Positions 2,783 through 51,475 of a stretch of DNA of 64,000 nucleotides are shown piece after piece. A model generated the notes under the pieces. That model saw nothing but the letters and a program-made list of their open reading frames with translations, was not told the origin of the DNA and ran no database searches. The stretch is from NCBI GenBank assembly GCA_964356795.1, contig CAYHIK010000005.1, positions 10,767 to 74,766 on the forward strand, given 5' to 3'. The stretch is from an uncultured Candidatus Saccharibacteria bacterium (lineage in GTDB: Bacteria > Patescibacteriota > Minisyncoccia > 2-02-FULL-40-12 > GWA2-44-9). Numbering within the stretch: position 1 is the first letter of the stretch; each line of letters starts with the position of its first letter. A program made the translations under genes and the position numbers.

Positions 2783-2979
2783 TGTGCTCTCGGCAGGAAT
2801 CACCCTCCACTCTCGGCGTCGCCAGTCGCGACGTCTCGGTTTCAGGCTCCCGCCCTCGCGGTGTCGGCTTCTACCGCCACATCGCTCCGGGCTTCGATTC
2901 CTGCCGACGGGATAGCATCTGCAAAACAACGCCGAGCCAAATGGCTCAGCATTGTTTTGATGTGCTCTCGGCAGGAATC
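2783..2979 (-). repeat. Repeats derived from the tRNA-Arg 3' end: 19-bp direct repeats at 2783-2801 and 2961-2979, plus an inverted 15-bp copy (TTCGATTCCTGCCGA) at 2893-2907.
   Basis: The identical string tgtgctctcggcaggaatc occurs twice in the same orientation; the second copy is the actual tRNA-Arg 3' end. The reverse-sense T-arm/acceptor fragment lies between them. Confidence 0.7.
2925..2957 (-). terminator. Hairpin terminator following the tRNA-Arg 3' end on the minus strand.
   Basis: Nested inverted repeat (CAAAACAA...GAGCCAaatGGCTC...TTGTTTTG) followed by a T-rich stretch in minus orientation. Confidence 0.45.
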
Positions 2980-3034
2980 GAACCTGCATTTCCGGCTTCG
3001 GAGGCTAGCGTCCTATCCATTGAACGACAAGAGC
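2963..3034 (-). tRNA. tRNA-Arg (anticodon CCG).
   Basis: Manual cloverleaf fold: acceptor GCTCTTG/CGAGAGC, D-arm GTTC/GGAC, anticodon loop CTCCGAA, T-arm GCAGG-TTCGATT-CCTGC. One A-C mismatch in the anticodon stem. CCA not encoded. Confidence 0.8.
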
Positions 3035-3045
3035 TGACATTGCGG

Positions 3046-3129
3046 TGCCTGGGGTCGGACTCGAACCGACACGGCCTTGCGGCCACAACATTTTAAGTGT
3101 TGCGAGTCTACCGATTTCTCCACCCAGGC
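3046..3129 (-). tRNA. tRNA-Leu (anticodon UAA), type II with a long variable arm.
   Basis: Acceptor GCCTGGG/CCCAGGC, anticodon stem CAACA/TGTTG with loop CTTAAAA, variable arm TGGCCGCAAGGCCGT, T-arm GTCGG-TTCGAGT-CCGAC, discriminator A. Confidence 0.85.
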
Positions 3130-3141
3130 AGAAATGAACTG

Positions 3142-3214
3142 AGGTGCCGGCGGGATTTGCACCCGCGAATGTCGGTTTTGCAGACCGATGTGTTAGCTAC
3201 TTCACCACGGCACC
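3142..3214 (-). tRNA. tRNA-Cys (anticodon GCA).
   Basis: Acceptor GGTGCCG/CGGCACC, anticodon stem TCGGT/ACCGA with loop CTGCAAA, T-arm GCGGG-TGCAAAT-CCCGC, discriminator U73 as expected for Cys. Confidence 0.85.
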
Positions 3215-3892
3215 ATTACGCATTCTCAAATACCTACGCATCACCGCTCTCTTTCTTTCAAGATATAGATGATGGGGCACTCTTCTGTACAAGAAGGTGC
3301 ACAATATAATACTATCATGAGTTGAATATCGCAATTGGAAGGATCGATGTGATACGCTGATCTTTCTCTTTTGTAGCTCAAGTCTCGCTCTTACGACCTC
3401 TTCAAGGCCGCAAAGGAAGTTTCGACTTCCTGAGGTGAAGATAGTCGACAGGCGTTTTAATATCCGCTGGCCTCTCTTTCCTGTGCCCATTTCTAGGTAA
3501 ATACATCCATCACCATCAAGATATCCTCGGATGAAATGAGCCAGATACGAGGATGGTACGTTTGGGAAGGGAATTGTCAGTGATTTATTTGGGTAAAGGC
3601 CCAACCTTGTAAGATCGTCGAAAATCTTATGACTCCCTATCCTTAGCGTATAGCGTGGCTTCCCAGGATATTTGACATCGTGTCGCAATGGCGTGATGGT
3701 ATGCTCGGAGCCCATCCACTCTCGCATGCGTTCAAGCATTATCCTGTCAGTGCTCGTTACGCTTGTATATTTCCCACGCATATACGGAGCATCCGTGAGG
3801 GATCCGTCGGCATAGAGGTAACCGAGAAGATAGGCCATTCTTGGGTGCCACCTGGAAAAGAAGTCCTCATTGACGGCATATTTTATCCCCAC
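3197..3892 (-). CDS. Free-standing double-motif LAGLIDADG homing endonuclease.
   Basis: Two LAGLIDADG motifs (LLGYLYADGS near residue 22; IRGYLDGDGC near residue 125) about 100 aa apart, as in monomeric I-SceI/I-DmoI-type enzymes. The last 6 codons (GAVVK*) are encoded by the first 18 nt of tRNA-Cys. Confidence 0.8.
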   Translation of the reverse strand: MGIKYAVNEDFFSRWHPRMAYLLGYLYADGSLTDAPYMRGKYTSVTSTDRIMLERMREWMGSEHTITPLRHDVKYPGKPRYTLRIGSHKIFDDLTRLGLYPNKSLTIPFPNVPSSYLAHFIRGYLDGDGCIYLEMGTGKRGQRILKRLSTIFTSGSRNFLCGLEEVVRARLELQKRKISVSHRSFQLRYSTHDSIILCTFLYRRVPHHLYLERKRAVMRRYLRMRNGAVVK

Positions 3893-3930: not shown

Positions 3931-5478
3931 CTATAACGACTGCGCGACCTGCGCTTCGGTGATGAACTCTATTGTATCACCTTCCTGAATTTTGCCGTCG
4001 AATCCTGAGGTGTCAATGCGCATACCACACTCAACGCCTTGTCCAACTTCTGACACATCTTCTTTTTCCTGCTGAAGGCTCGTGATTTTCCCAATACGTG
4101 TGGGCGTCTCGCCGCGCATGAGATCAGCAATTGCACCCTTCTTCACGACACCCGAAACGACACGCCCTCCAAGGATAATCGTGCGAGCTTCGGTCTTGAA
4201 GATTGCAAGTACGCGGAGTTTTCCGACGACGGTGCGCTCGGTGGTGCTGGGTAAGAGTGTGGTGAGTTCATTTCGAACCGCTTCGATGAGTTCGTAGATG
4301 ATGTCGAATGAGCGGATGATGATTGCGTCGCGCTCGGCAAGTTTCTGTGCAGCGGATTCAGTTTGCACTCGGAACCCAATTACGATGGCTCCCTTCGCGG
4401 CGGCGGTCTTCACGTCTGCCTCGGAGATGTTGCCAATGCCAGAGCTGAGCACGCGTACGCCGACCTGCTCGCTCTTGATGGCGCCCAGTGACAACTCGAT
4501 TGCTTCCAGCGAGCTTGCAACGTCTGCTTTGAAGATAACATTCAGCGTGAGGCGCTTTGTATCGGCGGTGTATTCACCGCGGTAGGTATCAAATGCCACA
4601 GGCGGGGGAGTGACCGAATCCGCGGCGAGCTCTTCGGCTGCTTTCTTTGCGCCCGCGGTTCGGAATTGCTCGCCAACGCGTGGCGCCTCTTGCCATCCCG
4701 TAATCACTACGGGTTGCGAGGGGCGTGCCGTATCAATGATGACGCCATTAAAATCTTCCATACTCTTCACTTTGCCGACGACATGACCAACCACAATCCA
4801 GTCGCCGACGCGGAGGATGCCGTGTTGCACGAGTGCTGTTGCCACATATCCTCGACGCTTATCGAGATTTGATTCGATGATGATGCCATCAGCTGGCCCA
4901 CTCACGTGCTCCTTGAGTTCAGCGAGTTCAGCGACGAGGAGCACCATCTCGAGAAGTTCGGGTATTCCTGCACCAGTTTTTGCAGAGATTTCAATTGCGG
5001 GAGTTTGCCCGCCCCACTCTTCGACGAGCACATCTTCTTGGGCGAGGTCTTGCTTGACCTTGGCGGAGGTAGCGCCTTCTTTGTCTATTTTGTTGATTGC
5101 GACGATGCAGGGGATGCCAGCGTCTTTGATGATGCGGATTGCTTCTTTGGTCTGCGGTTTTACCGATTCATCGGCAGCGATGACGAGAATAGCAATATCG
5201 GCAACTTTCGCACCGCGGCTTCGGATTGCAGTAAACGCTTCGTGGCCCGGGGTGTCGAGGAACGTGATGAGTTTGCCATTCGCTTCTGCTTGATAGGCGC
5301 CGATGTGTTGAGTGATACCCCCTGATTCGCCCTCAATGACATTCGCTTTACGAATGGTATCGAGGAGCTTCGTTTTGCCATGGTCAACATGCCCCAACAC
5401 GACCACGACGGGAGGACGCAACGTTTCCGCTGATTTTTGAGTGGTTGAGGGTGCCATAGCGACGTTGAAGGATACCAC
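3931..5478 (-). CDS. infB: Translation initiation factor IF-2 (short form starting at the G domain).
   Basis: G1 motif VVVVLGHVDHGKTKLLD, DTPGHEAF, NKID, plus the conserved C-terminal beta-barrel domains. Confidence 0.9.
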   Translation of the reverse strand: MVSFNVAMAPSTTQKSAETLRPPVVVVLGHVDHGKTKLLDTIRKANVIEGESGGITQHIGAYQAEANGKLITFLDTPGHEAFTAIRSRGAKVADIAILVIAADESVKPQTKEAIRIIKDAGIPCIVAINKIDKEGATSAKVKQDLAQEDVLVEEWGGQTPAIEISAKTGAGIPELLEMVLLVAELAELKEHVSGPADGIIIESNLDKRRGYVATALVQHGILRVGDWIVVGHVVGKVKSMEDFNGVIIDTARPSQPVVITGWQEAPRVGEQFRTAGAKKAAEELAADSVTPPPVAFDTYRGEYTADTKRLTLNVIFKADVASSLEAIELSLGAIKSEQVGVRVLSSGIGNISEADVKTAAAKGAIVIGFRVQTESAAQKLAERDAIIIRSFDIIYELIEAVRNELTTLLPSTTERTVVGKLRVLAIFKTEARTIILGGRVVSGVVKKGAIADLMRGETPTRIGKITSLQQEKEDVSEVGQGVECGMRIDTSGFDGKIQEGDTIEFITEAQVAQSL

Positions 5479-5517: not shown

Positions 5518-5838
5518 TTAGAGAATTCCTTCCTTGCGAAGGGCGGCTACAATGGAGTAGTCGGTGCGACCCGACTCATGCCGGTGCTTTAAGTCAGCTT
5601 CAATGACGTCCCAGATGGATACTTTGACGATGTGATCGTTGTCGACTTGGATGGGGAGCTTTTCCATTTTGTGGACGTGTTCAGTGATGTGGTGGCCCTC
5701 GTTGTCTACGAGATCGTAGATGAAGTACTGAGTGTCTTCTCGAAGATTTGCATCGGGATAGCGTTCGCGCAACTCAGCCATACGAGTTTCGATCTTTTCA
5801 ATAGAACGTTCTCCGCTTGGTGTCTCGTGGTGTTTCAT
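5518..5838 (-). CDS. Hypothetical protein (106 aa). The track ORF was trimmed to the internal ATG that abuts the upstream gene.
   Basis: Begins MKHHETPSGERSIEK; it starts 9 nt after the stop of the upstream membrane-protein gene. The track's 188-aa version overlaps that gene. Confidence 0.5.
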   Translation of the reverse strand: MKHHETPSGERSIEKIETRMAELRERYPDANLREDTQYFIYDLVDNEGHHITEHVHKMEKLPIQVDNDHIVKVSIWDVIEADLKHRHESGRTDYSIVAALRKEGIL

Positions 5839-6340: not shown

Positions 6341-6981
6341 TGCGGAGAGGGTGGGATTCGCCCTCAATTCTTTCGGAAAAAATTTGGGGGCTATCCATAA
6401 AAACTAATTCAGTTTTGAGTAAACTATCTTAAGCATTTCTTGCGGAGATAATTTACTACTATCAATTATACAAAAGTCGTCAAAAGATTTCGACTGCTGT
6501 GCTTTGAAGGTGAAGTCGAAACGATTTTTGTCAAAATCTTTACCCCTGCTTTCGTCTCGCTCCTTCACTCGTGAATGTAATACATCATAAGGTGCAATGA
6601 GAGAAAACTTGTGGAATTGAACACCATACTCATTTGAAATCATTTCGAGCCTTTTCAAGCGTTCTTCTGAAATGCCACTATCAATTACAGCATTTTTATT
6701 TTGCTCAAAAACTCCTTTCAATTTTTCAGTTATAATCTCAAACGCTCTTTTGTTGTCGCTATCTATCGAATCGGTTCTTTCAAGAAGTTTTCTCTCATTG
6801 TCCAAACTGAAAAATTCTGTATTAGAAAGATTGTTTTTGAGCAATTCTGAAAGTGTAGATTTTCCTGAACCTTTTGGCCCATCAAGAAGAATTAGATAGT
6901 TTTTCATATTAAACTTTCAATATTTCTAGTTCTCATATAACTTTTCGTGCAACTCTCTATTTGCGGAGAGGGTGGGATTCG
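6341..6981 (-). mobile_element. tRNA-associated integrated islet: a ~600 bp AT-rich (~30% GC) segment carrying a P-loop kinase gene, bounded by 20-bp direct repeats of the tRNA 3' end (att-like).
   Basis: tgcggagagggtgggattcg occurs at 6341-6360 and again at 6962-6981 (the 3' end of the tRNA at 6964-7050). GC content of the intervening DNA is far below the window average. Confidence 0.55.
6404..6907 (-). CDS. P-loop NTPase / small-molecule kinase-like protein (Walker A GPKGSGKST).
   Basis: N-terminal Walker A motif followed by a kinase-like architecture; very low GC and AT-rich codon usage relative to neighbours. Confidence 0.6.
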   Translation of the reverse strand: MKNYLILLDGPKGSGKSTLSELLKNNLSNTEFFSLDNERKLLERTDSIDSDNKRAFEIITEKLKGVFEQNKNAVIDSGISEERLKRLEMISNEYGVQFHKFSLIAPYDVLHSRVKERDESRGKDFDKNRFDFTFKAQQSKSFDDFCIIDSSKLSPQEMLKIVYSKLN

Positions 6982-7050
6982 AACCCACGAGACTCGTGAG
7001 AGTCCGGCGGTTTAGTAAACCGCTGCTTTCAACCACTCAGCCACCTCTCC
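6964..7050 (-). tRNA. Type II (Ser-like) tRNA with anticodon loop TTACTAA, formally anticodon ACU (A34); discriminator G73.
   Basis: Acceptor GGAGAGG/CCTCTCC, D-arm GCT...AGC, anticodon stem GCGGT/ACCGC, 18-nt variable arm (GGACTC-TCAC-GAGTCT), T-arm GTGGG-TTCGAAT-CCCAC. Aligns position-by-position with bacterial tRNA-Ser but has A rather than G at position 34. Confidence 0.7.
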
Positions 7051-8550: not shown

Positions 8551-8642
8551 TGGCGGAGGCGGGAGGATTCGAACCTCCGAGGGGTTTTGAAGCCCCTGCC
8601 TCTTTAGCAAAGAGGTACATTAGACCACTCTGACACGCCTCC
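8551..8642 (-). tRNA. tRNA-Ser (anticodon GCU), type II, with encoded CCA.
   Basis: Acceptor GGAGGCG/CGCCTCC, anticodon stem CCTCT/AGAGG with loop TTGCTAA, long variable arm CAGGGGCTTCAAAACCCCTC, T-arm GGAGG-TTCGAAT-CCTCC, G73, CCA. Confidence 0.85.
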
Positions 8643-17849: not shown

Positions 17850-20254
<2,405 letters not shown>

Positions 20255-20256
20255 GC

Positions 20257-20339
20257 GGCGGCATGGCCGAGATTCTGGTCAGGTGGAGGGCCTGCAAGTC
20301 CTCAGACGCGGATACGTTCCAGTCCCGCTGTCGCCTCCA
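20257..20339 (+). ncRNA. Candidate 83-nt structured RNA with a tRNA-like 7-bp acceptor pairing, a tmRNA-TLD-like 3' end and a terminal NCCA; function unassigned.
   Basis: 5' GGCGGCA pairs with 3' TGTCGCC, followed by U-CCA. The 3' part GACGCGG..GUUCCAGUCCCGC resembles the tmRNA T-arm/acceptor, and GAUUCUGG resembles the tmRNA 5' region. No anticodon arm could be folded. An intrinsic terminator follows. Confidence 0.35.
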
Positions 20340-20364
20340 AGCCTCATTCGTGGGGCTTTTTTTA
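20340..20364 (+). terminator. Rho-independent terminator.
   Basis: AGCCTC-attcgt-GGGGCT stem followed by TTTTTTT. Confidence 0.6.
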
Positions 20365-20394
20365 TGCCGAAAATTATGCTAGTTTCACTTTACG

Positions 20395-20697
20395 ATGCTG
20401 ACTGAGAAAGAGATAGAACATATTGCAAAACTTGCGCGACTTGAGCTTACTCATGAGATGCGTGAGCGGATGCGCAAAGACTTATCGAGCGTCCTCGACT
20501 ATATTGCGCTCCTTGAAACTGCAGATACGAGCGGTGTTGAGCCGTTGTATCAGGTGACTGGCTTGCAGAATCAGACGCGTCCCGATGTGCGTCGAGGGGA
20601 TTTTTCCATGGATGCAGCGGCAACCGAGCGACTCATTGGGCAGGCGCCTGCACAGCAAGGGCGATTCGTGAAAGTAAAATCAGTCAAAGCAACATGA
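20395..20697 (+). CDS. gatC: Asp/Glu-tRNA amidotransferase subunit C.
   Basis: Conserved GatC N-terminus ([14 protein letters not shown]...) and ~100 aa size; overlaps the gatA start. Confidence 0.85.
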
Positions 20698-22109
20698 GTG
20701 ATATCGGATACACAATTTCATCAGCACGTGCGGCGCTTGAATCCGGCTCACTGACGCCGGAGCGTTTGTTTGAGCACTACCAGCGTCGTATCGCAGAGCA
20801 CGATGGAGACATTCACGCGTACCGTAATACGAAGTTTTCTTTTATTCCACACGAGCTCGAGACGTCGGCACTTTCAGGAATCCCATACGCACTCAAAGAC
20901 AACATGCTTGTGGCGGGGAGCGTTGCAACGGGAGGCTCAAAGATTTTAGAACACTACGTATCTTCATATGACTCGACCGCGTATCAGAAGTTACTTGCCG
21001 CAGGCGCGCAGTTGCTCGGCAAGACCAATATGGATGAGTTCGCGATGGGCTCTTCGGGTGAAAATAGTGCGTATGAAGTCGTGCGCAATCCCCGCGACAC
21101 ATCTCGCGTTCCGGGAGGAAGCTCTGCGGGGTCTGCTGCCGCTGTTGCGGGGGATTTATGCGTCTTCTCACTTGGCTCGGATACAGGCGGTTCGATTCGT
21201 CAGCCCGCTGCTCTGTGTGGTGTTGTTGGCTTGAAGCCAACGTATGGCCGTGTGTCGCGCCATGGCTTGATGGCGATGGCGTCATCGCTCGACCAGATTG
21301 GGCCCATCACAAAGACCGTGCACGATAGCGCGCATGTGCTTTCAGTGATTGCGGGGCACGACGTGATGGACTCTACAACTGCTCCACGGGAGACGCAGGA
21401 TTACACCGAATCGCTCGAGCAAGACATCACCGGTCTCCGCGTGGGTATTCCCGAGGAGTACTTCGGAGAAGGGCTCGCCGACGAGGTGCGCGAACGAGTT
21501 GAGGCGGGGATTGAAGTGCTTCGGAGTCGAGGCGCAATCATCACGCCCATCTCCCTTCCGCATTCAAAGTATGCGCTCGCGGTGTACTACATCATTCAAC
21601 CGTCAGAGGTTTCTGCAAACTTAAATCGCTATGACGGTATTCGGTATGGCTATTCTGCTCCCGACGCGGCGAACTTATTCGAGGTGTACACCAAGAGTCG
21701 CGGCTCGGGATTTGGTCCAGAGCCAATTCGTCGTATCATGCTCGGCACCTACGCGCTCTCAGCTGGGTACTTTGATGCCTACTATATAAAAGCACAGAAA
21801 GTGCGTGCGCTGATTCGTCGAGATTTTGACCGTGCATTTGAGCGGGTTGACGTTATCGCAGGCCCCACAGCGCCAACCGTCGCATTCCCAATTGGCGAGA
21901 AGAGCGATGATCCGCTCGCAATGTATCTCTCCGATATTTACACAGTGCCAGTCAATCTTGCCGGAGTTCCCGCCATCTCTGTTCCTTGCGGAGTGGGAGC
22001 CTCGTCTGGGTTGCCGGTCGGACTCCAATTCATCGGACCCATGTTTGGTGAGGCGGCTATCTTGCGCGCGGCATGGCACGTAGAGCAGGGTTTGATAGCG
22101 AATAAGTAA
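20694..22109 (+). CDS. gatA: Asp/Glu-tRNA amidotransferase subunit A (amidase signature family).
   Basis: Amidase signature [12 protein letters not shown] and Ser-cisSer-Lys catalytic context. Confidence 0.9.
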
Positions 22110-22714
22110 TGGTATACGAAAACATTCCTACAATTCTCAATTCGGTCGTGATGATGTTTTATAACAGCGGCAAGCTTGGCGTTGGCGAATATTCTCTTGC
22201 GCGTATGTGGGATATCTTCCGCACCGATGGCAACGTTTCAAGCGTGACCACAATTCTTTCGCAAATTGCGTTTGTGGTAAGCATTGCGCTCGCGCTGTTT
22301 ATTTTGTATGTACTCGCGCAAAAGCGCGCACTCAAGGCGGGCGCGCCAGCTCCCGTTGTGGCTCCTGTGGCATCGAGTGAGGCAGAGGCTCGCGCGGGGA
22401 TGCTCCGTGGGCGCTGGGGTGAGATTACGAAATTGCTCGATTCTCCTCGAGAGGCAGATTGGAAGGTTGCGGTGCTCGAATCCGACAAACTCATGGATGA
22501 TGCTCTTGCACGCTCTGGATTTTCTGGCGATACGTTTGGCGACCGCTTGAGCAATATTCAACCCGGCACTCTCTTGTCACTTGATGGTATCTGGTGGGCA
22601 CACAAGATACGAAATCGGCTCGCCCATGAGACGGATTACTTCCTTCGATATACTGAGGCCCGCCAGGCGGTGGGATATTTCGAAGCGGCGCTCGCTGAGT
22701 TACAATTGATCTAA
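22109..22714 (+). CDS. Hypothetical membrane protein.
   Basis: TM helix (IAFVVSIALALFILYVLA) plus a soluble domain; translationally coupled to gatA. Confidence 0.5.
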   Translation: MVYENIPTILNSVVMMFYNSGKLGVGEYSLARMWDIFRTDGNVSSVTTILSQIAFVVSIALALFILYVLAQKRALKAGAPAPVVAPVASSEAEARAGMLRGRWGEITKLLDSPREADWKVAVLESDKLMDDALARSGFSGDTFGDRLSNIQPGTLLSLDGIWWAHKIRNRLAHETDYFLRYTEARQAVGYFEAALAELQLI

Positions 22715-25521: not shown

Positions 25522-28500
25522 ATGTTTGATTTCAAGCAGCTCGAAGAGCGTGTTCTCGCGTTTTGGGATGAGAGCGAAATCTTCAAGAAAAGCGTCGAAC
25601 AGCGCCGCGGTAACAAGCCTTTCGTGTTCTTCGAGGGCCCGCCAACGGCCAATGGAAGCCCCGGCATCCACCATTTCGTGGGGCGCATTTTTAAAGACAT
25701 CTTCAACCGATATCAGGCCATGCGCGGACGCTATGTGTTGCGCAAGGGGGGATGGGATACGCATGGTCTACCCGTAGAGCTTGGTGTGGAAAAAGAGCTC
25801 GGATTCAAGAGTAAGAAAGATATCGAGGCCTACGGCATTGCTGCGTACAATGCGAAGTGTCGTGAATCGGTGTGGAAATACAAGTCAGAGTGGGAGCAGT
25901 TCACGCGCCGCATCGGATACTGGGTTGACCTCGATGATCCGTATGTCACGTACGAAAGCGCATACATCGAGTCGCTCTGGAATGTTATTGGAAAAATATG
26001 GGACAAGAATTTGCTCTATCAAGCGCACCGCGTTGTCCCGTTTTGTACGCGTTGTGGAACCCCACTATCAAGCCATGAAGTTGCACAGGGATACAAAACG
26101 GTCACCGACACATCGGTGTTCTTGAAGTTCAAGGTCACGAAGTCCAAACTCAAACTTCCTCCGGAGACATATATCTTAGCTTGGACGACGACGCCGTGGA
26201 CGCTTCCGGGGAACATCGCCCTTGCCGTTGGGAAAAACATCCAGTATGTGCTCGCGCGTCGCAATGGTTCCGATGAGCACTTCATTCTTGCCGCTGACTT
26301 GGCGCAGACGGTGCTCGGCGCGCCTCTGGCGATTGTGCAAGAGTTTTCTGGAGCACAATTAGTGGGTACCGCGTACGAACCGCTCTTCCCAGTGCGTGCG
26401 CTGAAGAAGCCGAAATCGTACAAGGTATACGACGCCGACTTCGTATCGACAACCGACGGCACGGGCGTTGTGCATACGGCAGTTATGTACGGAGAGGATG
26501 ATTATCAGCTTGGCACAAAGCTTGGACTCGCAAAGGTCCATACTGTCGATGAGCAGGGGAAGTTTGTGGGCGTTTCCGGCGAGCTTGATGGGTGCTATGT
26601 GAAGTCGACAAAAACAGAAGAGCTTATTCTTACGTCGCTTGAATCGCGTGGGCTCCTCTTGAAGCGCTTGCCATTTGAGCACGAGTATCCATTTTGCTGG
26701 CGCTGTGAGACTCCGCTTTTGTACTACGCAAAGGATAGCTGGTTTATTCGCATGAGTGATGTGAATAAACAAATGATTGCGAATAACAACACGATTAACT
26801 GGATCCCATCCCACTTGAAAGATGGACGATTTGGGCAGTGGATTAAAGAGGGGAAAGACTGGGCATTCTCGCGAGAGCGATATTGGGCAACGCCACTTCC
26901 GATTTGGCAGGCGCGAGATAAGCATGGCCGAGGAACGGGAAAGTATCTCGTCGCCTCGTCACTTGAAGACCTCGACACCTATCGAGCCGACGCGCCCGCG
27001 ACATTCTGGACGATGCGTCATGGGGAGTCAAAGATTAATGTGGAGCAGGTGCTTGATTCTGGGCAGCAGGCGTCTCCATTGACTGACATTGGGCGCGAGC
27101 AGGCGCTCCGTACCGCGCAAGAATTAAAGAAAAAACTCAAGGCCTCTCGTGGAAAGATTGCAGCAATTATTGCTTCTCCGATTCAGCGCACAAAAGAAAC
27201 CGCAGAAATTGCTGCGCGGGAATTAGGAATCAAGACCGTTATATTCGATGAGCGACTCCGCGAGATTCATCTGGGACCATCGCTGAGCGGATGTCACGAC
27301 TCAACGTATCACGAGCAATACCCAACCTATGAGTCGAAATTCGCGAACCGTCCTCCTGGCGGAGAGTCTGTTGCCGACCTTAAGGCACGCGCGTGGAATT
27401 TCCTCAAAGAGCTGAATACGACCTATGCCGGCAAGCAGGTGCTCGTCGTGAGTCATGAATATTCAATCTGGGCGCTCGCTGATGCCGCCAATGCGTGGAG
27501 CGTGAAGCAGTCAATTGAGGAAAAGACGAAGCGTGGCGATGATTTTATCGGACTTGCGGGCCTTGAAAAGATTGTTGTTCGCAATGTGCCGAGGAATGAC
27601 CGAGGTGAGCTTGATATGCATCGACCCTATGTCGACGATATTATCCTCAAGCATCCGAAGTCGAAGGTTCCACTCTATCGTGTACCCGAGCTTTGCGATG
27701 TGTGGTTTGACTCGGGCGCGATGCCGTATGCTCAGTGGCATTGGCCGTTCGAGAATAATGAGACGTTCAAACAGCAGTTTCCTGCGGACTTTATTGCGGA
27801 AGGAATTGATCAAACACGCGGGTGGTTCTACACGCTTCTCGCTATTTCGACATTGCTCGGAAATCCGGCACCGTTTAAGACTGTGCTCTCATTCGGGCAT
27901 GTGCTCGATGAGAAGGGGCAAAAGATGTCGAAGTCGAAGGGAAATATCGTGAAGCCTGATGAGGTTATCGACGCCGTTGGCGTGGATACTGCGCGTTGGT
28001 ACTTCTATACACTCAATGCTCCGGGCGACTCGAAAAACTACTCCATGAAAGAAGTGCGCGAGCGATTGACGGGCTTTATGATGACGCTTCAGAATTGCAT
28101 TCGATTTTACGAATTGTATCAGGCGGAGCACCATGCCCCGGTGCGCGTTGACGTTCCTGATGCAACGAATCAGCTCGATGTGTGGATGATGTCCCGCCTT
28201 GAGCGTCTTACCGCGCTCGTGTTTGAGCGTCTCGAGCAATTCGACCTTACGGTTGCGTCTCGCGAGATTGAGCGATTTGTGGTGGATGATTTTAGTCAGT
28301 GGTGGCTACGGCGGAGCAGAAAGCGTGATGATGCCCTGCCGTTCATGCGCCACATCCTCCGAAGGCTCTCGCTTCTGTTGGCTCCATTCATCCCATTTAC
28401 TGCTGAAGATCTCTGGGGAAAGTTGCGGGGCAAAAATGATCCTGAATCTGTCCATCTCGCTGACTGGCCGAAAGCCCATACGAGTGCTGTGAACGAGTCT

Positions 28501-28992
28501 CTTGAGACGCAGATGGCGCAGGTTCGCGAATATATTCGTGCCGGACTTGCGATTCGAAAAGACCAGCAAATTAAAGTCCGCCAGCCACTCCAAAAGGTGA
28601 CCGTTCCCGGTACGCAACTGCACGAAGATATGGAGCAGTTGATTCGCGACGAGCTCAATGTGAAAGAAGTCACATATGCCGTGGGTGAGCCCGTGGCGCT
28701 CGATGTTCATATTGGCACCGAGCTTCGTGCGGAAGGGTTCGCGCGCGAAGCTATGCGTACCATTCAAGATATGCGCAAAGAGATTGGATGCCAGGTTTCT
28801 GACAAGGTATATTGCCAATGGCATAGTACCGATGACGAGGTTTCCCGGGCACTACGCTCATACGGGGGCGCAATCGCTGACGACACTGGCCTCACTGAAT
28901 TTGTAGAGCGGCCCGACGACAAAACGCTCACGATTGAGAAGAATTTTGACCTCGCAGCCGGAAAGCCTCTCTGGATTGGTATTCGGAAATAA
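25522..28992 (+). CDS. ileS: Isoleucyl-tRNA synthetase, eukaryote/archaeal-like type 2, carrying an in-frame ~200-aa histidine-phosphatase (PGAM-like) domain insertion and a non-canonical HIGH motif.
   Basis: IleRS hallmarks: GPPTANG..., GWDTHGLPVE, WTTTPWTLPGN editing motif, WAFSRERYWATPLPIW, DVWFDSG, KMSKS. Between PIW and LDMHR (normally ~35 aa) lie ~250 aa containing RHGES..N, LTDIGREQA, SPIQRTKETAEIA and VVSHE motifs of branch-1 histidine phosphatases. Confidence 0.85.
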   Translation: MFDFKQLEERVLAFWDESEIFKKSVEQRRGNKPFVFFEGPPTANGSPGIHHFVGRIFKDIFNRYQAMRGRYVLRKGGWDTHGLPVELGVEKELGFKSKKDIEAYGIAAYNAKCRESVWKYKSEWEQFTRRIGYWVDLDDPYVTYESAYIESLWNVIGKIWDKNLLYQAHRVVPFCTRCGTPLSSHEVAQGYKTVTDTSVFLKFKVTKSKLKLPPETYILAWTTTPWTLPGNIALAVGKNIQYVLARRNGSDEHFILAADLAQTVLGAPLAIVQEFSGAQLVGTAYEPLFPVRALKKPKSYKVYDADFVSTTDGTGVVHTAVMYGEDDYQLGTKLGLAKVHTVDEQGKFVGVSGELDGCYVKSTKTEELILTSLESRGLLLKRLPFEHEYPFCWRCETPLLYYAKDSWFIRMSDVNKQMIANNNTINWIPSHLKDGRFGQWIKEGKDWAFSRERYWATPLPIWQARDKHGRGTGKYLVASSLEDLDTYRADAPATFWTMRHGESKINVEQVLDSGQQASPLTDIGREQALRTAQELKKKLKASRGKIAAIIASPIQRTKETAEIAARELGIKTVIFDERLREIHLGPSLSGCHDSTYHEQYPTYESKFANRPPGGESVADLKARAWNFLKELNTTYAGKQVLVVSHEYSIWALADAANAWSVKQSIEEKTKRGDDFIGLAGLEKIVVRNVPRNDRGELDMHRPYVDDIILKHPKSKVPLYRVPELCDVWFDSGAMPYAQWHWPFENNETFKQQFPADFIAEGIDQTRGWFYTLLAISTLLGNPAPFKTVLSFGHVLDEKGQKMSKSKGNIVKPDEVIDAVGVDTARWYFYTLNAPGDSKNYSMKEVRERLTGFMMTLQNCIRFYELYQAEHHAPVRVDVPDATNQLDVWMMSRLERLTALVFERLEQFDLTVASREIERFVVDDFSQWWLRRSRKRDDALPFMRHILRRLSLLLAPFIPFTAEDLWGKLRGKNDPESVHLADWPKAHTSAVNESLETQMAQVREYIRAGLAIRKDQQIKVRQPLQKVTVPGTQLHEDMEQLIRDELNVKEVTYAVGEPVALDVHIGTELRAEGFAREAMRTIQDMRKEIGCQVSDKVYCQWHSTDDEVSRALRSYGGAIADDTGLTEFVERPDDKTLTIEKNFDLAAGKPLWIGIRK

Positions 28993-29516: not shown

Positions 29517-29533
29517 TTGCTATACTCAATGGC

Positions 29534-33606: not shown

Positions 33607-33706
33607 TGATTATTAATAGGGGAATCGTTTGTACAAGCAGTATGACGTGCATATGTGAACATTCTTTCACATCACGTCTCTGCATTAATGATATACTACA
33701 CGCAAC

Positions 33707-42959: not shown

Positions 42960-43033
42960 GCGGGCGTAGCTCAGCTGGTTAGAGCGCTTCCCTGTCACGG
43001 AAGAGGTCACCGGTTCGAATCCGGCCGCCCGCG
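42960..43033 (+). tRNA. tRNA-Asp (anticodon GUC).
   Basis: Acceptor GCGGGCG/CGCCCGC, D-arm GCTC-AGCTGGTTA-GAGC, anticodon stem CTTCC/GGAAG with loop CTGTCAC, T-loop TTCGAAT, discriminator G. Confidence 0.85.
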
Positions 43034-43043
43034 CAATTAAGAA

Positions 43044-43067
43044 AAGAGCTCGAAAGGGCTCTTTTCT
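43044..43067 (+). terminator. Rho-independent terminator after tRNA-Asp.
   Basis: AAGAGC-tcgaaagg-GCTCTT stem followed by TTCT. Confidence 0.5.
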
Positions 43068-43081
43068 GGTATACTACCCTC

Positions 43082-51417: not shown

Positions 51418-51475
51418 GCGGGGGCACGCGGCCCCCGTTTTTTTTCGGCAAAAAGCGTGCTACAGTACCCTGTAC

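Follow-up and report, generated by a model that had tools for sequence, protein, structure and literature searches.

A non-canonical tRNA-Cys paralogue between ligA and gatC in a Paceibacteria clade, possibly with a role outside standard decoding

What kind of RNA, if any, is encoded in the short interval between ligA and gatC on contig CAYHIK010000005.1 of an uncultured Patescibacteriota bacterium? The analysed stretch of this contig comprises 64,000 nt and is called the window in the following. An 83-nt element occupies its positions 20257-20339 on the forward strand. A preliminary description had reported a 7-bp acceptor pairing followed by a discriminator U and CCA; the letters agree with it, and these features were confirmed in the sequence, as was the location between the two genes (the ligA stop codon ends at 20254, the element begins 2 nt later, and gatC starts downstream at 20395). 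Judged from sequence and pairing, the element is a divergent paralogue of tRNA-Cys(GCA), from which it descended. On balance, we consider it probable that it constitutes a functional, independently transcribed, non-canonical member of the tRNA-Cys lineage in a Paceibacteria clade (Yanofskybacteria-like, within the candidate phyla radiation, CPR), likely serving outside standard decoding.

The element escaped the usual detectors. At gathering thresholds, an Rfam search of the whole window returned six ordinary tRNAs elsewhere and nothing at the element. Even at E ≤ 10, no tRNA, transfer-messenger RNA (tmRNA) or signal recognition particle (SRP) RNA was matched in the 301 nt from 20150 to 20450. 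The top Rfam match, Atu_C8 (20.6 bits versus a threshold of 50), was rejected because its score was driven by the terminator. ARAGORN, applied to the window, called neither a tRNA nor a tmRNA at the element. In RNA folding, an anticodon arm was seen; the folding energy was unremarkable (z = -0.86), and energy alone is uninformative here.

Nine distinct versions of the element, including that of the window, were found at loci around LigA homologues of 66-95% identity (Table 1). All of them are located on the same strand, directly 5′ of gatC. The nearest LigA relatives carry the labels Candidatus Paceibacterota, Yanofskybacteria or Patescibacteria, and proteins with a sequence identical to the window's GatC are encoded on metagenome contigs from Hainich groundwater. 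Extra genes, or a non-coding insert of about 400 nt, occur at some loci on the ligA side of the element but never on its gatC side. A tblastn search of LigA, GatC and GatA against all tRNA-Cys loci found the ligA-gatC context at true family members only. Across the family, ARAGORN with default settings called none of the nine members; only the L018 orthologue reached the threshold of the Rfam tRNA model RF00005 (43.8 bits, threshold 29 bits), and the other eight members had no match to this model at E ≤ 10. The slot between ligA and the element contains different cargo genes in L018, L019, L116 and L119. In L120 (4534-4941), it is occupied by the non-coding insert of about 400 nt, which carries long inverted repeats (GGCAGGC/GCCTGCC motifs, CCCTCACTTATATAAGTGAGGG) and is possibly a small mobile element.

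A cloverleaf of 20 base pairs was tested on a MAFFT alignment (A2) of the nine orthologues. All 180 stem cells (20 pairs in nine orthologues) were paired, and changes on both sides were found for 12 of the 20 pairs. Such compensatory pairs occur in each stem, i.e. in the acceptor stem (five of seven pairs), the D stem (two of three), the anticodon stem (two of five) and the T stem (three of the four outer pairs). None of 500 shuffles reached the observed covariation score, and sliding the 3′ partners cut the pairing to 38-59%. For most members, the cloverleaf is also the minimum-energy fold of the single sequence. The four-arm architecture of tRNAs with a 7-bp acceptor stem (including one G-U pair in the window element) is therefore backed by covariation. 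The pairing asked after in the preliminary description is thus conserved in relatives, but its statement that there is no anticodon arm was mistaken, as a conserved 5-bp stem with compensatory changes encloses the loop CCUGCAAG, which carries GCA. The element is also overlapped by short open reading frames (ORFs; 20251-20382 and 20283-20405), which were not accepted as coding because compensatory changes in stems are no coding pattern.

The rate of divergence points in the same direction. The elements of L004 and L068, which belong to different species, are identical at 78 of 78 positions, whereas their flanking genes show 78-80% nucleotide identity. For the element, identity between the window and the L018 genome amounts to 71.1%, compared with 70.7% for the canonical tRNA-Cys of both genomes. 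L117 and L120 share the anticodon GAA, yet differ in three compensatory acceptor pairs, which argues that the structure remained under selection after the anticodon switch. On the evidence of the alignment, the cloverleaf fold is maintained by selection.

Descent from tRNA-Cys is supported by several comparisons. A covariance model (R1) built from the nine members gave scores of 69-86 bits for the members, 49-73 bits for canonical tRNA-Cys (52 bits for that of the window itself) and at most 33 bits for other tRNAs. After in silico removal of the AUAC bulge in the T stem and of one loop C, ARAGORN called the window element a tRNA-Cys(GCA) with default settings. The L018 orthologue has a normal 7-nt anticodon loop (UUGCAAC) and a 5-bp T stem. 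Scanning metagenomes with a DNA pattern derived from the element (acceptor, YTGCAA loop, CRCCTCCA end) yielded mostly canonical bacterial tRNA-Cys genes, along with chance matches in coding regions and just two more copies of the L004 type; a scan of viral contigs with the anticodon-arm pattern gave 0 matches. U73 and the anticodon GCA are the identity elements of cysteinyl-tRNA synthetase (CysRS) known from Escherichia coli, and the window element possesses the complete set (U73, G34-C35-A36). GCA is present in seven of the nine members and is replaced by GAA in L117 and L120. Further features shared with canonical bacterial tRNA-Cys(GCA) (RF00005), besides sequence homology and the four-arm cloverleaf, are a 7-bp acceptor stem of the form GGCGGCN/NGCCGCC, the core bases A14, G15, A21 and G26 and, in the host's own tRNA-Cys, the T stem GCGG(G)/CCCGC. 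A canonical tRNA-Cys coexists with the element in both genomes checked: in the window, it is encoded at 3141-3214, so that the element represents an additional paralogue; the 562-kb contig bearing the L018 element likewise holds one, adjoining infB (L122 7656-7729).

The features that were kept differ from those that drifted. Invariant in all nine members are A14, G15, A21 and G26, the anticodon-loop bases G34, A36 and A37, U73 and the CCA end, and the anticodon stem is mostly invariant. CCA is encoded in all nine members but in only one of the six canonical tRNA genes of the window (compared at 2962-3214, 6963-7050, 8551-8642 and 42960-43034); neither canonical tRNA-Cys encodes it. The anticodon loop departs from the 7 nt of ordinary tRNAs in eight of nine members, which have 8 nt, with L018 as the only 7-nt form. 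The loops of the family read CCUGCAAR, UCUGCAAG, CGUGCAAA, GCGGCAAU, CCUGAAAA and, for the 7-nt form, UUGCAAC; U33 is replaced by G in L119, and position 35 is C or A. The D and T loops, which together form the elbow, deviate from the tRNA consensus and vary between subfamilies. The T loops are UUCCAGU, UCCCAGU, CCCCAGC, CUGAAAUU-type, UCGAAGU and UAAGU, and the GG of the D loop is missing in six of nine members. The window form has the T loop UUCCAGU and the D-loop GG, but is set apart from canonical tRNA-Cys by its 8-nt anticodon loop and by a 4-nt bulge in the T stem. In ordinary tRNAs, the acceptor end and the anticodon are read by synthetases, and the elbow is read by the ribosome, RNase P, the CCA-adding enzyme and T-loop modification enzymes.

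Enlarged anticodon regions were also seen in tRNA-Cys genes on unrelated metagenome contigs. Those at L060 455-527 (+) and L071 2108-2184 (-) have normal T arms and irregular anticodon regions (CCUGCAAG in L060, CCUUGCAAU in L071); ARAGORN reported them as "tRNA-??? (gc)" and tRNA-Ala(tgc), respectively. Enlarged loops in tRNAs of the Cys type may be more widespread.

The element appears to be a gene of its own. In all nine orthologues, a box of the form TGn plus NAnnnT is located 6-8 nt 5′ of the first nucleotide, although the surrounding sequence is unalignable: in the window, L016 and L004, the box lies within the last ligA codons, and elsewhere in unrelated intergenic DNA. A stricter form, TGNTANNNT, is present in eight of the nine, while L119 has TGcGATGGT. 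This motif is found at only 75 of the window's 128,000 strand positions, in many cases a short distance 5′ of genes. A scan for two-hexamer consensus sequences between 20100 and 20500 found no sigma-70 promoter, so that the promoter call rests on conservation. We infer that this extended -10 box is the element's own promoter. At the 3′ side, the intrinsic terminator noted in the preliminary description was recovered by a terminator scan (20339-20358), and a hairpin with T-run follows the element or its adjacent tRNA in eight of nine orthologues (by eye outside the window); in L004, a T-run alone stands directly after CCA, before gatC. As gatC is preceded by its own -10 box (TGnTAnTTT-like, 10-15 nt 5′ of the start codon, at other loci too), it forms a separate transcription unit.

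Similar boxes were observed elsewhere in the window. A -10-like hexamer is found 7-8 nt 5′ of the first nucleotide of tRNA-Cys and of a tRNA-Ser(ACU), which suggests that these transcripts are leaderless. Boxes of the form TGnTAnnnT at 20377-20385, 29518-29526, 33689-33697, 43067-43075 and 51458-51466 precede start codons (of gatC, gatB and others) by about 10-18 nt, implying leaderless mRNAs, or mRNAs with very short leaders, in this organism.

What might such an RNA do? Transcription would start at or near the first nucleotide from the extended -10 box and stop at the terminator; the product would measure about 80 nt and finish in CCA. This CCA may be encoded because the altered elbow makes a poor substrate for the CCA-adding enzyme. 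Most likely, the RNA would still be aminoacylated, as it keeps U73 and GCA as in the CysRS identity of E. coli, and would no longer take part in elongation like an ordinary tRNA. Instead, it would be a "non-proteinogenic" tRNA or a tRNA mimic that carries its aminoacyl group to a non-ribosomal process, or titrates or senses a tRNA-binding protein. We favour such a role outside ordinary decoding by analogy, given that the parts read by synthetases are kept, that the elbow is altered, and that the family resembles a tRNA-Gly of Staphylococcus. The latter serves pentaglycine synthesis for the cell wall and has altered D and T loops as its signature (Giannouli et al. 2009, in PMC8007984); it is charged, binds EF-Tu poorly and feeds the Fem transferases (PMC8007984). 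Like the element, it is a paralogue that exists in addition to a normal isoacceptor; its D and T loops are altered, tRNA finders score it low, and it is kept by selection. Unlike the element family, it retains a 7-nt anticodon loop, and it concerns another amino acid and another phylum; moreover, no Fem-like partner was seen among the annotated ORFs of the window. A second precedent is tRNA-Other of Bacillus cereus, a pseudo-tRNA without translation function that was recruited to another role (PMC3399842). It is likewise a tRNA-derived gene that scores poorly with tRNA finders; it is, however, contained within longer transcripts of a regulatory kind and borders a genomic island, whereas the element has a putative promoter set to start at the first base, its own terminator and cross-species covariation.

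Several observations weigh against this interpretation of the element, or limit how widely it could apply. Searches with Pfam and NCBIfam among the 35 annotated proteins of the 64-kb window (tiling of 68 ORFs) revealed no transferase using aminoacyl-tRNA, no second CysRS and no other partner. By the rules of E. coli, the GAA forms of L117 and L120 are not CysRS substrates, so that charging with Cys would not be family-wide. The window and L016 copies have a fairly normal T loop (U54, U55 or C55, C56, A58) together with the D-loop GG; with these features, the window copy may have retained activity on the ribosome. At three related loci (L005, L017 and L115), ligA is directly followed by gatC without the element, which is therefore dispensable or relocated there. 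Finally, the family comprises only nine sequences from one clade with common ancestry. A link to SepRS/SepCysS was also considered and rejected, as nothing ties those enzymes to the element. They are reported from no more than a couple of Parcubacteria bins, where the tRNA-Cys species are ordinary (Mukai et al., PMC5424206). The literature on non-canonical tRNAs of CPR bacteria, 8-nt anticodon loops and pseudo-tRNAs, of which our coverage was incomplete, yielded no description of the family.

The RNA might instead still decode, either as a minor Cys isoacceptor or, in the GAA lineages, as a tRNA-Phe after a one-base switch of the anticodon. We regard this as unlikely, though a serious contender. 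The 8-nt loop would then read triplets, as does that of yeast mitochondrial tRNA-Thr1, or promote +1 or quadruplet reading at UGC-N. Conservation of the cloverleaf, U73, CCA and of G34, A36 and A37 would fit, as would the L018 orthologue, which with its normal 7-nt loop passes the Rfam tRNA threshold, the retained D-loop GG and near-normal T loop of the window copy, and the T stem GCGG(G)/CCCGC common to the element and canonical tRNA-Cys. A GAA form minus one loop base is called tRNA-Phe by ARAGORN at the 80% threshold. Natural triplet reading with such a loop is documented: tRNA-Thr1 has an 8-nt anticodon loop, derives from a tRNA of another identity and is a proven decoder that reassigns CUN (PMC3113583). 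It shares with the element the natural enlargement of the loop, but is organellar and not a redundant paralogue with a degenerate elbow. In both genomes checked, the canonical tRNA-Cys makes the element redundant for UGY, and its elbow loops differ radically between subfamilies, unlike those of the six standard tRNAs of the window. Furthermore, the GAA variants have U73 and not A73, the base typical of tRNA-Phe, and the variability in loop length (7 or 8 nt), U33 and position 35 is hard to fit to one conserved decoding task.

The position of the element, beginning so close to the ligA stop codon in the window and directly 5′ of gatC at nine of nine loci, with insertions only on the ligA side, could indicate a cis-acting tRNA-like structure, i.e. 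a 3′ end, terminator or stabiliser of the ligA mRNA, or a processing or leader element of the gatCAB transcript. The arrangement in L004, where CCA is directly followed by a T-run and then gatC, would also suit this explanation. Nevertheless, we hold it to be improbable: the conserved -10 box is retained even where genes separate the element from ligA (L018, L019, L116, L119, L120), the element is followed by a terminator and, 10-15 nt ahead of the gatC start codon, by a separate promoter for this gene, related genomes keep ligA-gatC without the element, and neither a terminator nor a processing hairpin needs conservation of U73, CCA and the anticodon loop. Indels that break the models of tRNA finders, the loss at the locus in three relatives and the odd tRNA-like neighbours in L018 and L116 (see below), which could be taken as a "graveyard", might suggest a functionless tRNA-Cys pseudogene decaying after duplication. 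This has very little probability, however, with no unpaired cell among 180 and 12 compensatory pairs, full identity between species despite flanks that differ by about 20%, divergence at the rate of genuine tRNA-Cys, and a promoter, CCA and terminator (a T-run in L004) conserved in every lineage; the comparison of orthologues essentially excludes it. Lowest of all stands the origin that the preliminary description had put forward, namely a relic of the tRNA-like domain of tmRNA (ssrA) or a minimal SRP-like hairpin, to which we assign a negligible probability. An acceptor stem with CCA, a T-arm-like hairpin whose T loop resembles GUUC, and a loop containing GCAA make for a superficial likeness only. 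SRP RNA is marked by a helix 8 that has conserved symmetric and asymmetric loops and a GNAR tetraloop; the supposed GCAA apex of the element is the anticodon loop of a cloverleaf. G3:U70 in the acceptor stem is required for alanine charging of tmRNA, whereas the element has C3:G70 and U73. At only 83 nt, it also contains an anticodon arm, which tmRNA lacks, and is without the tag reading frame and pseudoknots of the latter. Besides the negative results of Rfam (at gathering thresholds and at E ≤ 10) and ARAGORN given above, the complete four-arm cloverleaf homologous to tRNA-Cys rules out either origin. Of the preliminary description, the tRNA shape with acceptor stem, discriminator base and CCA end and the terminator behind it stood, while the relation to tmRNA or SRP RNA did not.

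Returning to the probably functional tRNA-Cys paralogue, its conservation has consequences for annotation. The gene is invisible to ARAGORN and to the Rfam tRNA model, and at least one public gene call overwrites it: in L119, the GatC call (4980-5456) begins 5′ of the element and spans it, comprising 158 aa compared with about 100 aa elsewhere, so that the over-extended ORF masks the RNA gene. Inventories of tRNAs in CPR bacteria may therefore miss such genes. The family also offers a natural experiment on what is retained and what drifts once a tRNA paralogue is freed from its standard task: the retained features are acceptor helix, U73, CCA, core bases and anticodon stem, while elbow loops, loop size and the middle anticodon base drift. 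Should the RNA be charged and act off the ribosome, this would point to an unknown tRNA-dependent pathway in organisms of minimal metabolism; if it decodes, it would be a rare natural bacterial tRNA with an 8-nt loop, relevant to frameshift and quadruplet decoding. More speculatively, and with considerable doubt, the clade may keep a dedicated class of tRNA-derived RNAs serving a new tRNA-dependent process (non-ribosomal aminoacyl transfer or a tRNA-mimic regulator would be possible) or natural frameshift or quadruplet decoding. Under this tentative extension, only the acceptor end and an anticodon-like arm would be retained, the ribosome-facing elbow would be given up and the anticodon loop would be non-standard; the odd Gly-like and Gln-like neighbours of the element in L018 and L116 would be candidate further members.

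These two neighbours are as follows. In L018, the interval that separates the Cys-like element from the terminator and gatC contains a second odd tRNA (5694-5771, +), at a distance of 24 nt from the element. This tRNA folds into a good cloverleaf in which the T arm is canonical and the acceptor Gly-like (GCGGGUG...CGCCCGC-U); its anticodon loop of 8 nt, UAGAACGG, can alternatively be read as a 6-bp stem with a 6-nt loop. ARAGORN reported it as "tRNA-??? (gaac)", and its Rfam tRNA score is 51.5 bits. In L116, a tRNA-Gln-like gene (5233-5304, +; UGGGGCC..., CUG in the loop) is placed between the Cys-like element and gatC, directly 5′ of the latter. With an anticodon loop shortened to 6 nt (UUCUGA) and the T loop UCCGAAU, it was reported as "tRNA-??? 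(ct)" by ARAGORN. The position of this aberrant tRNA-Gln relative next to amidotransferase genes is curious.

Table 1. Coordinates of the element, its parts and neighbouring signals in the window, and of its orthologues at other loci
Feature	Positions	Strand	Remarks
Acceptor stem, 5′ strand GGCGGCA	20257-20263	+	Pairs with 20329-20335
D arm, 3-bp stem GCC/GGU, 13-nt loop including GG	20266-20284	+	Alignment columns 10-12 with 26-28
Anticodon arm, 5-bp stem GAGGG/UCCUC, 8-nt loop CCUGCAAG	20286-20303	+	GCA at 20294-20296
T arm, GCGG/CCGC plus G:C, loop UUCCAGU	20308-20328	+	Stem broken by 4-nt bulge AUAC, 20312-20315
Acceptor stem, 3′ strand UGUCGCC, discriminator U, encoded CCA	20329-20339	+	U and CCA at 20336-20339
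Extended -10 box TGcTATGCT (putative promoter of the element)	20242-20250	+	Within last ligA codons, 6 nt 5′ of first nucleotide of the element
Intrinsic terminator, 8-bp hairpin and T-run	20339-20365	+	Terminator scan; hairpin with T-run 20339-20358
Extended -10 box of gatC, TGcTAGTTT	20377-20385	+	10 nt 5′ of gatC start codon; outside the element
Canonical tRNA-Cys(GCA), same genome	3141-3214	-	ARAGORN; Rfam 64.5 bits; CCA not encoded
Orthologue L016	4516-4598		
Orthologue L018	5592-5669		
Orthologue L004	5064-5141		Sequence identical in L105 and L068
Orthologue L019	5105-5182		
Orthologue L117	4551-4628		Same as L118
Orthologue L120	4942-5018		
Orthologue L116	5131-5205		
Orthologue L119	4992-5065		

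Some further features of the window and related loci concern other tRNAs and genes. The tRNA-Ser(ACU) mentioned above (6963-7050, -) stands beside a normal tRNA-Ser(GCU) and has a counterpart at L122 3659-3746 (+), and is thus conserved in two lineages. Its A34 is unusual in bacterial tRNAs other than tRNA-Arg(ACG). A LAGLIDADG-like ORF of 231 aa (3197-3892, -) is located between infB and the tRNA-Cys/Leu/Arg cluster; as listed, it shares 18 nt with the 5′ end of the canonical tRNA-Cys gene, and the syntenic site in L122 is without the ORF.

Downstream of the element, a 201-aa protein without Pfam or NCBIfam match is encoded after gatA and before a VanW/PG_binding_4 protein (22109-22714, +), and it is found at this position in all related loci, with or without the element. 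Finally, the gene at 25522-28992 (+) encodes an isoleucyl-tRNA-synthetase-like protein of 1156 aa, in which a histidine-phosphatase domain (His_Phos_1, residues 496-662) is inserted in the middle of the class I catalytic domain.

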